Shown: positions 3,392-52,699, counted from the stretch's first letter. The stretch: 64,000 nucleotides of DNA from Eledone cirrhosa (GCA_964016885.1 CAXHJY010000719.1:13750-77749), one strand, 5' to 3'. The notes: a model not told the origin generated them from the letters alone. A program made the numbers and translations.

Positions 3392-3840
3392 GTAAGAGAA
3401 TTACACTCACGCATACACACCTACTTTAAACGTACATTTATCTCGAAAGTTTTACATAGGAACATCATACATTTTTATGTTATTCCCCCCCCCCCTCCTC
3501 CATATATATATATATATATATACATATATATATATATATATATATATATATATATATATATATATATATATATATATATATATATATAGAGAGAGAGAGA
3601 GAAGAGTCTGCGGTACTGAGACCGAGGAGACCACTAATCATGGGAGTACTCGATGTATGGGGAGATGCAGAGTATATATATATATATATATATATATAAA
3701 TGAAAGGTATAGAAAATATTGTAGCAAAAAGCCAACAGTATTCCATAATATATTTATATATATATATATATATATATATATATATATATATATATACAAT
3801 GATATTAAATAAATGGAAACTATATTTATAAAACCATATT

Positions 3841-3901
3841 TATTCTATTATATATATTTCAAGGGTACCAAAACTTTGGTACGCTTTCATCAGATAAAAT
3901 A
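3841..3901 (-). ncRNA. Type I hammerhead ribozyme (mirror copy)
   Basis: Reverse complement of 4041-4101. Confidence 0.8.
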
Positions 3902-4040
3902 CAAAGTTTGTTTTATAAATTTTGACATAACCAAGAAAAGATACCTTAACGGTTCAAGTTTTTCTTGGATAATCCAAGAAAAACTTGAATCGTTAAGGTA
4001 TCTTTTCTTGGTTATGTCAAAATTTATAAAACAAACTTTG

Positions 4041-4101
4041 TATTTTATCTGATGAAAGCGTACCAAAGTTTTGGTACCCTTGAAATATATATAATAGAAT
4101 A
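4041..4101 (+). ncRNA. Type I hammerhead ribozyme, minimal palindromic stem III
   Basis: TATTTTAT-CTGATGA-AAGcGTACCAAAgtTTTGGTACcCTT-GAAA-TATAT-ATA^ATAGAATA. Stems I and II and the core are intact. Confidence 0.85.
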
Positions 4102-4926
4102 AATATGGTTTTATAAATATAGTTTCCATTTATTTAATATCATTGTATATATATATATATATATATATATATATATATATATATATATATATATATACAC
4201 ACATATATATAAGTAGGCGCATATTACATACAATGGCAATTATATCAAGAATGCTCCCACCCTCTTTTCGTTATATTAAAAAACAAACACTTTCATAAAA
4301 ATATTATTTAACGAAAACATTTGCGAAAAACATCTCAAGTTCAAACTACTTTAAGGTGTTCTTTAAGTAATATTTGTACTTTTAACCATGCACTAGGCTA
4401 TATATGTTAAGGGTATTGAAAATAAAGTTGAGTTATTTACACATTAATGCTCTAATTAAGACGGTCCCATACAATTAGTACTAATTATAATTATTCATTA
4501 GGTCAGAGTTCACGAGGGATCCTCTAATTGGTCGCTCGATCTGTTAGGAATAGCAGCCAATTCCCCGTCAAATTATGTCCTACTGCTAAAACAGGAATGC
4601 CTTTGATCATGCGACTGTTCGACTCTAGGGCTAAACAACAACAACATACTTGGATAAATTCAGTCGTCGATAGCTCTCAACTCGTACGATAAAGACGGTC
4701 TAGCTGAGCTAAGGAGCGAGGGTATTTTAGCACGGGGTCGATCGACGTGCTAAAAATAGCAACCAAATATCTTTAAAATCACACCCCCACAGTCTTAAAA
4801 AAGAAAGTAAATATTAGGCTATCATTGACAATAGAGCACGAAATATATACCGAACTTGTCCTTTGGACTGAGTGCTCTACCAACTTTGGATATAAGCTCC
4901 CGTTTTTCCACTACTATATATTTCTC

Positions 4927-5114
4927 ATTATCATCATCATCACCATAATTTAAAGTCCATTTTCGATGCTTGCATGGGTTAAACGGGTCGTCCGCGTCAT
5001 AAGACATGTTTAGTATGATTGGACGCGCCGTACCTTGCTCAGACTGAATTATAAATTTGGCCTGGACTTTTACAGATGGATGCCCTTCCTAAAACCAACT
5101 ACATTTACAGTGTG
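4927..5114 (-). mobile_element. Old RTE 3' end remnant
   Basis: (CAT)n, gcttgcatgggtt and ggatgcccttcctaa.accaac.acatttacagtg motifs shared with the RTE 3'UTRs elsewhere in the window. Confidence 0.7.
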
Positions 5115-6129
5115 GAACTAGATCTCACCGTTATGAGGAGGGACAGGCCGGCTGGCTGCGCTGAACCCTTCTCACAGTAGAACCATAGTTTGGGAGCCAC
5201 ACCCACATTTATATTGTGGAGCTGAGGCAAGTCTGGTCAGTTGGCCACACCGTACCCTGCTCACAGCGGAACTATAGTTTATGAGGGAGATTGGGTCAGT
5301 AGGCAATGCCAAGCCTTACTTGTAAAAGTAACCATGTTACTGGTGAGCCACATCCAAGTCAGTTAAGCCACATGGGTTTTTGTTGTCAGGATTTAGCTGG
5401 AATTCCACTTTGTTGCTTCTGCTGTCAAACTTATATCTAGAAGCTTTCTTGAGTTTGGAAAAATAAACGTTGGTAGTCATGGTAATGGTGAGATGTCAAC
5501 AGTGTCACTGCCACTGCCAACTACAAATATGACTTACTCAGAGTTTCTTCCCTTAGCATGTGTTAAAATACAAACACAATGCTTTCAAACTGTATAGGGA
5601 TCTTTTTGTTCACGGGTTAAATATTAAGTAGATATGACATTTATACTTACATGGAAGAGATATAAAGAATGTATGACAAAATGTGCTGCTGGCAATAGAA
5701 GAGAGAGCGGATTTTTATATTAAAGCATGTGTTTGTTGTTGCTTTATGTTGATTGAACACGTGTTGCTCACTTGTTTTAGCTGTATCTCCTTTCATACAG
5801 GAGAGAGAGAGACATTCAAAACTGAAGCAACCGTGTATTTATTGCTTTAGTGTCAGCTACTATGTTAAATGCGTGTCGCTCACTTTCTTTGCTTTCTTTA
5901 TCTCTGTTTCTTTCTCTCTTTGTTCATGCATTGTGAACATACTTGCTTAGTTTCATCTTTGGCTTTCAGCACTCTATTTAATTTCACGTGTGCTTTCTCT
6001 CAAATTCTCACTTCTTCATTCCCCCTATTTTTCCTCATATTCCATCGTAGTGAAGATGATAACTCACGACAACGACAGATTGACAAACAGACAAGCAAAC
6101 ATATAAACAAATGAATACAGGTACAAAAC

Positions 6130-49872: not shown

Positions 49873-50146
49873 TATATAATAACTTGTGTGTTACACCTCT
49901 ATTCTTTTAACTATATATATATATATATATATTTCGTTTCTGAATTTGTTTAGCAAGATTCTTTATCTGAAATCGTGTGTTGAAACCGATATTGTTATAC
50001 TTTGGGAGGGTCATGTTGCCAATAAGAAACACACGCACCAGTTGCTTTCACTTCAATTTATTATATATTTATAAATTTATAAATTTACAAATTTACAAAC
50101 TTCTGGTTGGTTGGTTGGTTCCACAACCAGATAGTTGTTTATATAT

Positions 50147-50191
50147 AGTCATAGTCCTTTCGTCACACACTCTGTGACCTCTTCAGTGACT
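50147..50191 (-). ncRNA. Minimal hammerhead ribozyme (PLE family 1)
   Basis: Same motif as 23752-23796. Confidence 0.72.
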
Positions 50192-50497
50192 GGGGATTCC
50201 TTTCCTTTGTTTCTGTGCCTTTCCTTTCTTCTATCCTACGCCATTTTGTTTCTGTGTGTGGGTTGTGTGCTCAGTTTGCGCATGCGCCACATCCGGGTGT
50301 CTGTGTGTGTTTGTGTTCATTTATCTATTTGTTTATTTATTTATTTATTTATTTATTGTTGGTTGGTTGTTTGTTCTATGTGTGTGTGTGTTTTCATTTT
50401 GTCCTGTGTGTGTTTTCATTTTGTCCTTAATTGTAAGTTGTTTGTTCTATGTGTGTGTGTGTTTTCATTTTGTCCTGTGTGTGTTTTTATTTTGTCC

Positions 50498-51556
50498 TTA
50501 ATTGTAAGTTGTGATGTTGCTGTTCCACTCATATTTTCTATTTAATTTTGGTTTTAATTCTTTTATGCTTACTGCCTCTGTAATTTGCCTAAACATTGCG
50601 TCTTTTCTGTGTGTGGATTCTATTTTTATTTCTATGTTCTCTAGTCTACCCCTGTGTTCTATCTTAGCATGTTGGTAGAGCACAGATGATTCTTTATTAT
50701 CTTGGAGGTCTCGCCAGTGTTCATTTATTCGTTCCCCTATACTACGAGCTGTCTCACCTATGTACACTATATTTTTGTTTCTACATTGTCTTTCTGTACA
50801 TCTTATGCTATACACTACATTTCTAGTTTTACAGTTAATATGGGGGCTTATTTTACAGGTTATACATTTCTTATCTATACATGAGGGTCTTTGGAACAGG
50901 TATGTCTTGCTAATAAGTGTTTTTACGGAGGTACCTGGTCTTTCTACTATCTTAATATTGAGATTATGTTTATTTAGGGCCCTTCTAAATTTGTAGGCTA
51001 GTTCGCCTCTAGGGGTTGTATTGATGAACATTACACTCTGGTATTTATTGCTATCATACCATGAGTTTATTCTATTGGCCTTGTTCCTAGTTCTTTCTAT
51101 TCTATTCCAAAATTTGCTCCTATACAAGGGGCAGGTCCCATTTATGTCATTATTTACCATTTTTTCCCATTTGGTTCTGGCTCCTTTATACACTCTGATT
51201 CTATCTCTCTGATTGTAGCCAGAGAACTGCATACGGTGGATGAAGTGTTGTATGTGGCTCTCTAGTTCTTCGGGGTTGCACATGCGGGACACATTTCTCA
51301 TCACCCGTACCAAATCCGCAATCAGTATGTTGATTTTGGTATGGTCCGAAATGGCCGAGTTTCGGTGGATCAGATGTTTGGAAGTCATGGGTTTGGCATA
51401 ATGAGAATGGAGGATTTGTTTTTGGTTGTTAATGGTATCTAACCAGAGCTCTGTGTCTAGTACAGGTAATCGATGGTTGGGGTGTCTACTTGGGTAGTCT
51501 ATAGTAACTCTAATGCTCTGGTGGATGGAGTTTGCTATTTGCTGGATGCTTTCCAT
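50498..51556 (-). CDS. Penelope-like RT thumb + GIY-YIG endonuclease, 5'-truncated open frame
   Basis: LPVLD, HYAKPM, SGY, CIDKKCITC..CKTRNVVYSIRC..YIGETARSIGERINEH..RQITEA..LN. Confidence 0.9.
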   Translation of the reverse strand: MESIQQIANSIHQSIRVTIDYPSRHPNHRLPVLDTELWLDTINNQKQILHSHYAKPMTSKHLIHRNSAISDHTKINILIADLVRVMRNVSRMCNPEELESHIQHFIHRMQFSGYNQRDRIRVYKGARTKWEKMVNNDINGTCPLYRSKFWNRIERTRNKANRINSWYDSNKYQSVMFINTTPRGELAYKFRRALNKHNLNIKIVERPGTSVKTLISKTYLFQRPSCIDKKCITCKISPHINCKTRNVVYSIRCTERQCRNKNIVYIGETARSIGERINEHWRDLQDNKESSVLYQHAKIEHRGRLENIEIKIESTHRKDAMFRQITEAVSIKELKPKLNRKYEWNSNITTYN

Positions 51557-52422
51557 TGTGTTTTTCTCTAGTTCTTGACTGTTCTTTAGTTCATCAATAC
51601 AACCCCTAGAGGCGAACTAGCCTACAAATTTAGAAGGGCCCTAAATAAACATAATCTCAATATTAAGATAGTAGAAAGACCAGGTACCTCCGTAAAAACA
51701 CTTATTAGCAAGACATACCCGTTCCAAAGACCCTCATGTATAGATAAGAAATGTATAACCTGTAAAATAAGCCCCCATATTAACTGTAAAACTAGAAATG
51801 TAGTGTATAGCATAAGATGTACAGAAGGACAATGTAGAAACAAAAATATAGTGTACATAGGTGAGACAGCTCGTAGTATAGGGGAACGAATAAATGAACA
51901 CTGGCGAGACCTCCAAGATAATAAAGAATCATCTGTGCTCTACCAACATGCTAAGATAGAACACAGGGGTAGACTAGAGAACATAGAAATAAAAATAGAA
52001 TCCACACACAGAAAAGACGCAATGTTTAGGCAAATTACAGAGGCAGTAAGCATAAAAGAATTAAAACCAAAATTAAATAGAAAATATGAGTGGAACAGCA
52101 ACATCACAACTTACAATTAAGGACAAAATAAAAACACACACAGGACAAAATGAAAACACACACACACATAGAACAAACAACTTACAATTAAGGACAAAAT
52201 GAAAACACACACAGGACAAAATGAAAACACACACACACATAGAACAAACAACCAACCAACAATAAATAAATAAATAAATAAACAAATAGATAAATGAACA
52301 CAAACACACACAGACACCCGGATGTGGCGCATGCGCAAACTGAGCACACAACACACACACAGAAACAAAATGGCGTAGGATAGAAGAAAGGAAAGGCACA
52401 GAAACAAAGGAAAGGAATCCCC

Positions 52423-52467
52423 AGTCACTGAAGAGGTCACAGAGTGTGTGACGAAAGGACTATGACT
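52423..52467 (+). ncRNA. Minimal hammerhead ribozyme (PLE family 1)
   Basis: Same motif as 23752-23796. Confidence 0.72.
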
Positions 52468-52699
52468 ATATATAAACAACTATTTGGTTGTGGAATCAAC
52501 CAACCAACCAGAAATTTATAAGTTTGTAAATTTGTAAATTTATAAATATATAATAAATTGAAGTGAAAGCAACTGGTGCATGTGTTTCTTATTGGCAACA
52601 TGACCCTCCCAAAGTATAACAATATATATATATACATATGTATATATATATATATATATATATATATATATATATACATATGTATGTATATATATATAT

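Follow-up and report, generated by a model that had tools for sequence, protein, structure and literature searches.

Paired hammerhead ribozyme motifs in (TA)n cassettes of Eledone cirrhosa belong to inverted, shortened copies of Penelope-like retrotransposons

The stretch analysed here, 64,000 nucleotides of DNA from Eledone cirrhosa (GCA_964016885.1 CAXHJY010000719.1:13750-77749; hereafter the window), contains five cassettes set in (TA)n, each made of a leftward and a rightward arm. Most arms carry a motif of the type I hammerhead ribozyme (HHR) that points outward. The original prediction traced the cassettes to Penelope-like elements (PLEs), retrotransposons with HHRs in their pseudo-long terminal repeats (pLTRs). 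It proposed that the small, non-coding ones (minis) are non-autonomous units that encode a ribozyme on both strands and so self-process whichever strand is transcribed. All five cassettes lie where it placed them, the only change being that the cassette at 33320 ends at 36232. They are inverted, shortened copies of ordinary PLEs.

We label the cassettes A (3797), B (23471), C (25681), D (33320) and E (49932), and their families A (cassette A), D (cassette D), E (cassettes B and E) and C (cassette C). The (TA)n flanks are present at all five but are not peculiar to them: RTE, short interspersed element (SINE)-like and other inserts are bounded likewise, and 18% of the window consists of TA-type repeats. 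The larger cassettes, described at first as bearing open reading frames (ORFs), do contain coding pieces, but only as ORF fragments. A Pfam search named one of five proteins, the GIY-YIG fragment in the right arm of cassette E (PF01541, E 1.2e-4). The arms of cassette E are 98.7% identical. Measured against L185, a natural genomic copy, the left arm of cassette D lacks about 1.5 kb, including the endonuclease. Four of the five cassettes are asymmetric, with a tail on a single arm. The palindromic part of cassette C, for example, spans 25754-25984 (93%); its left arm adds a 72-nt tail (25681-25753) and its right arm is tail-less. Cassette A has a tail on neither arm. Its arms meet 5'-to-5' at 3971/3972, and this join lies 2-3 nt inside the 5' end that is fixed in the family (ACTATCC).

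Table 1. Cassettes, their arms and ribozyme motifs, and a related single-arm copy in the window (RT, reverse transcriptase; UTR, untranslated region)
Feature	Position	Strand	Description
Cassette A	3797..4145		349-bp palindrome (99%); both arms tail-less pLTRs, Hydra-type PLE
Cassette B	23471..23950		Neptune-type family E
Cassette B, left arm	23471-23656		With 60-nt tail; stops short of HHR
Cassette B, right arm	23669-23950		Tail-less; one HHR
Cassette C	25681..25985		Third PLE-like family; 27-nt duplication at junction
Cassette D, left arm	33320..35230	-	Tail-less; HHR core 33417; 3' UTR; RT fragments 34184-35230
Cassette D, right arm	35232..36232	+	3' UTR; ACTATCC at 35954; HHR core 36043; tail ~36141-36232
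Cassette E, left arm	49932..51590	-	Tail 49932-49989; HHR core 50186; C-terminal part of ORF, with RT thumb region and GIY-YIG
Cassette E, right arm	51589..52624	+	GIY-YIG fragment 51590-52120; HHR core 52428; tail-less end
Single-arm family E copy	17357..18237	-	HHR core 17543; abuts RTE fragment; absent from the original prediction
HHR cores by cassette	A 4049+, 3893-; B 23757+; C 25925+, 25813-; D 36043+, 33417-; E 52428+, 50186-		
Type I HHR, cassette A right arm	4041..4101	+	Core CUGAUGA at 4049; predicted cut after 4093
Same HHR, cassette A left arm	3841..3901	-	Core 3893; predicted cut after 3849
Minimal type I HHR, cassette B	23752..23796	+	Core CUGAAGA at 23757; predicted cut after 23791
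Type I HHR, cassette C	25919..25969	+	Core 25925; predicted cut after 25963 (GUA)

Nine type I HHR cores, two per cassette and one in cassette B, face outward as first described (Table 1). With a stem I of at least 5 bp, a strict descriptor matched five motifs in the window, where 30 shuffles gave 0.03; four lie inside cassettes and one is at 19707. The descriptor misses the motifs of cassettes B and E, with an extra G before stem II, and that of cassette C, with a U.U at the base of stem II. These were placed by inspection and constrained folding. Stem III of the motif on the right arm of cassette A is self-complementary, AUAUAUAU (dimer type). Stem III in cassette B is AGGACU, and the cassette C motif, mirrored on the minus strand, has a stem I of 6 bp and a stem III of 4 bp. 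An Rfam scan of the window returned no hammerhead family among the best 150 of 396 matches, which were microsatellite-driven microRNA matches and two histone stem-loops. When single arms were folded without constraint, the HHR fold was mostly not obtained (z -0.2 to -2.2). A single-arm fragment of a further HHR family lies between TA runs at 19610-19770; its core (19707, minus strand) has a stem I of 8 bp and a fully self-complementary stem III, AUGCGCAU.

The cassettes were expected to fall into at least three dissimilar families. Three or four PLE families are indeed present, but cassettes B and E belong to one, and cassettes A and D are related (87% over the HHR region), both being Hydra-type. 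The PLE origin, the HHRs in pLTRs, the inverted layout and the (TA)n target were upheld. Full ORFs are found in genomic copies, of 743 amino acids in family D (L183) and 1282 open codons in family E. Hallmarks of endonuclease-bearing (EN+) PLEs are present: a single ORF with RT plus a GIY-YIG domain at its C terminus, a pLTR with an HHR, partial tandem or inverted copies, and a one-sided tail. The L183 protein has RWR for RWK, DKT, a CxCx5C linker, and CxxC and CxH around E/N, and no CCHH; family A copies continue upstream into Hydra-type ORF pieces with the same linker. These protein motifs and the (TA)n target point to the Hydra clade for families A and D. The family D unit, at about 4.3 kb, is longer than Hydra-clade elements (less than 3 kb) because its 3' UTR is long (about 1.9 kb). 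Family E has a CX4CxxC linker (CIDKKCITC), two Cys within GIY-YIG and a downstream His (CCHH), and by these motifs is classed as Neptune-type. It is young, with ORF copies 98-99% identical and up to about 1280 codons open. One family E ORF (L221) contains in its N-terminal half a long low-complexity insert rich in Asn, His and Thr, which recalls the Asn-rich inserts of Adineta Penelope elements. Family C, left unassigned to either type, showed no ORF within 1.5 kb upstream in the 13 loci examined, and shares the end anatomy of the other families. Among named proteins, the nearest relatives come from Argonauta. Elements of the Hydra type are very abundant in the genome: a first look gave 20,929 candidates, and the exact family-A HHR motif occurs 2020 times.

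Where do these copies end at the 5' side? An unbiased set for family A was drawn from the 2020 matches to the exact 29-nt HHR motif: 95 of the first 100 gave 90 loci, or 88 after removal of two duplicates. Their 5' ends range from about 0 to about 2 kb into the ORF. By 5' reach, 15 extend beyond 1 kb, 16 to 300-999 nt, 9 to 80-299 and 32 to 56-79 (positions -79 to -56), and 16 are shorter. With its duplication set aside, one further copy (L083) also falls within 56-79, which leaves 39 longer copies and 33 (about 38%) that stop at a single site, ACTAYCC, some 325 nt before the ATG. Eleven of these 33 have no inverted arm. In long copies ACTAYCC is ordinary internal sequence, preceded by C in 25 of 25 cases. 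At direct joins to (TA)n (65 loci) the preceding base is instead G (22 loci), T (25), C (13) or A (5); this count was made by hand on the first 100 of 204 rows, which held 74 distinct loci, nine of them excluded for want of an intact ACT, with five rows as control. The G is in neither the parent nor the target. In L1 and SVA such an untemplated G is taken as a copy of the cap and marks a full-length capped 5' end (PMC4859970). In family D, six of seven TA-joined ends are at the ACTATCC site, and the ORF-bearing copies L183, L190 and L194 start at or near it. Together, the untemplated G, the pile-up of ends and the family D copies that begin there suggest that ACTAYCC is a capped transcription start.

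On the 3' side, every family has two fixed ends, one tail-less and one tailed, which lie 60-95 nt apart and both downstream of the HHR. In full-length copies they fall in the 5' UTR (families A and D) or at the start of the ORF (family E, whose tail is the beginning of the ORF). Measured from the ATG of family D, ACTATCC is at about -325, the HHR core at -235, the tail-less end at about -140 and the tail end at about -48. We scored the tail in 39 compact family-A palindromes, 17 of them picked for likeness to cassette A, 18 unbiased and 4 from a junction search. It is on exactly one arm in 34, on both in none and on neither in five; four of the five have degenerate tails on inspection, leaving cassette A as the true exception. 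The same one-sided pattern is seen in families C and E.

The arms also differ in 5' reach, and in either direction. Among the 34 tailed palindromes the tail-less arm reaches further in 20, the tailed arm in 10, and the two are equal in 4; often, therefore, neither arm contains the other. (Local-alignment ends overshoot at L079 and L092 with no change of class, and L079 and L086 are one duplicated insertion, so that the independent cases number 19-20.) Of 12 loci tested for a complete ACTAYCC end, eight could be scored: it is on the tailed arm in six and on the tail-less arm in two. The tail-less arm bears the complete end in L008 and L212 and has the longer 5' reach in cassettes B and D. In some family-C copies the inverted arm covers just some 16 nt from the tail end.

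These lengths bear on how the palindromes arose. In a self-priming route, a single cDNA would fold back at its 3' end and copy itself, after which the endonuclease would resolve the hairpin and leave a one-sided tail. Variants common to both arms would be accounted for, as would short reiterations at some junctions. The commonest family-A junction fits, in our reading, a cDNA whose cap-derived terminal C folds back over a 6-nt loop, and for that reason self-priming may contribute. But fold-back of a tailed cDNA always makes the tailed arm the longest, which is the opposite of what 20 of the 34 palindromes, L008, L212 and cassettes B and D display. We regard self-priming as an improbable explanation for the cassettes; two separately primed cDNAs fit the arm lengths best.

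Are the minis replicated as units? Palindromes with two ribozymes, propagated as such and processing the transcript of either strand, would recur in the genome, and genomic searches confirmed the predicted recurrence: cassette A is matched over its full length, at 92-100%, by no fewer than 40 loci, in a set selected for that likeness. In addition, hot-spot copies that have two HHRs no more than 330 nt apart make up 14 of the 88 loci in the unbiased set. The centre junction, whose recurrence had been proposed as a check, tells against the unit. That of cassette A was found in 1 of 19 near-symmetric copies, and the commonest junction, though shared by 5 of the 19, occurs in both orientations relative to the tail. 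Arm ends differ among the 18 unbiased compact palindromes, the sole matching pair (L079 and L086) sharing 2.8 kb of flank. The spacing between HHRs on opposite strands is continuous, from about 100 to 3135 nt in family A and from 142 to 6654 nt in family E, and lengths grade continuously into those of ORF-bearing copies. Nor is there a lineage of minis: on a tree of 92 rows short and long copies interleave (23 label changes against 27.4 when shuffled), and each main subfamily includes long copies.

Self-processing of either strand fares no better in folding predictions. Forcing the HHR fold costs 3.7 (A) or 3.5 (C) kcal/mol in a lone arm, against 82.5 (A) and 85.3 (C) kcal/mol in the whole palindrome. 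RNA read through an entire mini is predicted to fold into one hairpin; its antisense arm is made first and would pair with the ribozyme arm. Moreover, the arms run about 50-145 nt past the predicted cleavage site, which argues that the template RNA was uncut. A replicated ribozyme unit is thus largely refuted, and we give it very little credence. Two other identities were considered and rejected. The minis could be mistaken for miniature inverted-repeat transposable elements (MITEs), but their ends differ by the tail, their interiors vary and their parents are retroelements. Non-LTR (long terminal repeat) retrozymes are tandem direct repeats, whereas the cassettes are head-to-head; a second HHR on the same strand lies upstream in 10 of 90 family-A loci at varied spacing, and none forms a regular array.

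Our preferred account is that the cassettes are inverted, 5'-shortened insertions of Hydra- and Neptune-type PLEs, each probably built on site from two head-to-head cDNAs. By analogy with Frangieh 2024, the two fixed 3' ends would be two internal start sites of reverse transcription, and GIY-YIG nicks on both strands of the (TA)n target would provide the primers. Each target end may prime at a different site, the template being a single transcript or a pair transcribed from one locus. Of 87 rare variants, 17 are present in both arms, which suggests one source transcript or locus per insertion. The two cDNAs would stop independently, and their 3' ends would be joined through 0-5 nt of microhomology or short filler. 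In family A they would run off the capped 5' end of the mRNA at ACTAYCC. With the start sites primed at their 5'-UTR copy, the cDNAs would run off after about 175 or 270 nt. This would explain the size of the mini arms, two of which would make a mini of about 350-440 bp. The HHR would be a passenger of the pLTR, left uncut in the template. A single TA run often holds adjoining PLE ends, whether from one family or from different ones (L003, L015, L020, L069, L078, L081 and L090), which suggests that TA runs serve as repeated landing sites.

The template might also be shorter. Solo pLTRs or mini arms could retain an internal promoter, and their short capped RNAs could be copied in trans in SINE-like fashion, the palindrome being rebuilt each time. 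Consistent with this, 49 of the 88 loci end at or inside the site and contain the stretch from the start site through both priming sites, short copies cluster weakly on the tree, and pLTRs are reported to be sufficient for mobilisation in trans (Arkhipova 2013, PMC3846280). Against it, long copies are present in every main subfamily, and the junctions themselves cannot separate such copying from priming on full-length mRNA. We hold it to be a minority possibility. A bolder extension, which seems doubtful to us, sees each mini as the fossil of a full PLE integration: a dimeric RT-endonuclease would extend both ends of the cut (TA)n target from two fixed sites inside a capped mRNA, both cDNAs would reach the cap and be joined, and the resulting back-to-back start sites would emit short capped ribozyme RNAs in both directions and seed copies in trans.

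Several observations weigh against the account of two separately primed cDNAs or limit its reach. No sharp 5' site was found in family C (first 100 of 108 rows) or in family E (30 loci), where ends are scattered; the ACTAYCC step therefore leaves cassettes B and C, which are plain short truncations, unexplained. The sharp site with its G was found in family A, while family D has the site (7 loci) without a countable excess of G. Both the putative start site and the putative cap are read from genomic junctions, and in inverted copies the G can often also be explained by the partner arm. The argument for one source depends on 17 variants, the arms of a copy differ by 2.9% against 1.9% from the nearest other copy, and shared variants could come from later conversion between arms. 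Arm lengths could also be blurred by deletions that arose later at the centres of palindromes. Resolution of the tree is weak, and its short copies are slightly clustered (21-26 of 500 shuffles gave counts as low). Cassette A, with its tail on neither arm, departs from the rule.

Chimeric inverted reads, introduced in amplification or assembly, would also produce palindromes. Cassette A is a near-perfect one on an unplaced contig, and among restriction site-associated DNA reads and contigs, dominated by other copies of the family, none spans its junction with unique flank. However, a related centre is bridged by a 107-nt contig of short-read origin, and by a few raw reads as well. The tailed and tail-less ends are specific to each family, which argues against chimeras; ends cluster at one site, arms diverge by 0-10%, and thousands of loci lie on chromosome-scale contigs. 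An artefact is extremely improbable.

The window holds other mobile elements. At 2394-2945 lies an element of about 550 bp with 85-bp terminal inverted repeats (96%) and two outward hairpins like the histone 3' stem-loop (Rfam Histone3 at 2616-2661, minus strand, 37.5 bits, and 2783-2827, plus strand, 34 bits; cut-off 34). It is a true MITE-like family, with fixed ends genome-wide (1550 candidates, 40 of them scored). A palindrome of about 700 bp (89%; 7014-7767), with a partial second copy at 12519-12917, is foldback- or MITE-like, and no HHR core was found in it. The ORF list includes broken gag-protease-RT-integrase frames at 8184-11892 on the minus strand, which we take to be a Ty3/Gypsy-like LTR retrotransposon. 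RTE-type long interspersed elements (LINEs) of two subfamilies (21407-23174, 26297-29822, 30130-32600, 40164-43445, 44907-48431 and 60186-64000) end in (ATC)n/(GAT)n and sit in TA runs; short non-coding copies (16905, 24642, 32934 and 43630) share their 3' end. Directly after cassette D, on the plus strand, a GIY-YIG-like fragment with a Cys linker (36270-36700) belongs to another Hydra-like PLE and has no DNA match to L185. It is followed at 36700-38330 (+) by GC-rich sequence with broken RT-like and zinc-finger frames of another mobile element. A DNA-transposon-like element of 1.3 kb (48582-49872), with 291-bp terminal inverted repeats (97%), lies between TA runs and is also present in L182.

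The claim of a new self-processing element does not hold. The finding itself is real and ordinary in kind, and it carries a useful mechanistic signal. Inverted truncated copies, one-sided tails and a (TA)n bias have already been published, and the origin of tandem and inverted PLE copies is named as open by both Craig 2021 (PMC8557442) and Frangieh 2024 (PMC11167929). The ends of thousands of short copies give a direct read-out of the two proposed start sites, of the proposed capped 5' end and of the many cases in which neither arm can be a fold-back copy of the other. They yield precise predictions for an in vitro system, with the young family E as a candidate for such work. Annotators should record these repeats as ends of PLEs and not as MITEs. 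MITEs are likewise short with inverted ends, but those ends are fixed and symmetric and the interior constant, whereas ours are asymmetric with a variable centre. Non-LTR retrozymes are also short, non-coding, HHR-bearing and PLE-derived, and differ in being tandem direct repeats (bioRxiv 10.64898/2026.07.22.740005).

Among known PLEs, family D most resembles those of the Hydra clade (Craig et al. 2021, PMC8557442), with RWR/RWK, DKT, CxCx5C, GIY-YIG, a canonical HHR and a (TA)n target. Inverted 5'-truncated copies with a one-sided tail appear there too (Fig. 2 legend). The tail is about 92 nt here against 30-40 nt in that clade, the unit about 4.3 kb against less than 3 kb, and the elements are very abundant in this genome. 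Family E is like Neptune and the Penelope elements of Adineta vaga (PMC3846280) in its CX4CxxC linker, CCHH motif, Asn-rich insert, head-to-head pLTRs, and a pLTR and tail that overlap the ORF start; its 60-nt tail is a difference. Arkhipova 2013 (PMC3846280) explains such copies by self-priming on an antisense template. The arm lengths observed here speak instead for two cDNAs made separately. The minimal HHRs of PLEs (Cervera and De la Pena 2014, PMC4209133) match ours in pLTR location, palindromic stem III and an extra base before stem II; the family C motif is unlike them in that its 4-bp stem III could fold as a monomer. That paper reports dual opposite-strand HHRs about 100-700 bp apart in Schistosoma and ties solo motifs to truncated PLEs; its accessible text yielded no junction, tail or 5'-end analysis.

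In vitro work on Anolis Poseidon (Frangieh 2024, PMC11167929) comes closest to the mechanism proposed here. Its tail is bounded by two internal RT start sites, both strands of an AT-rich target are cut and extended, the HHR is dispensable and the template is unprocessed RNA. In Poseidon the start sites lie in the ORF, whereas those of families A and D lie in the 5' UTR; the accessible part of that paper explains neither inverted copies nor the 5' end of the RNA. Literature searches found no account of a cap-derived G or of twin priming in PLEs, although subscription papers or supplements may hold one. In twin priming of L1, each of the two cDNAs is copied from a different part of the RNA. Those proposed here would overlap almost wholly, which would make a palindrome. 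In the priming of both target ends and in the cap-derived G, L1 twin priming (PMC4859970) resembles our proposal for PLEs.

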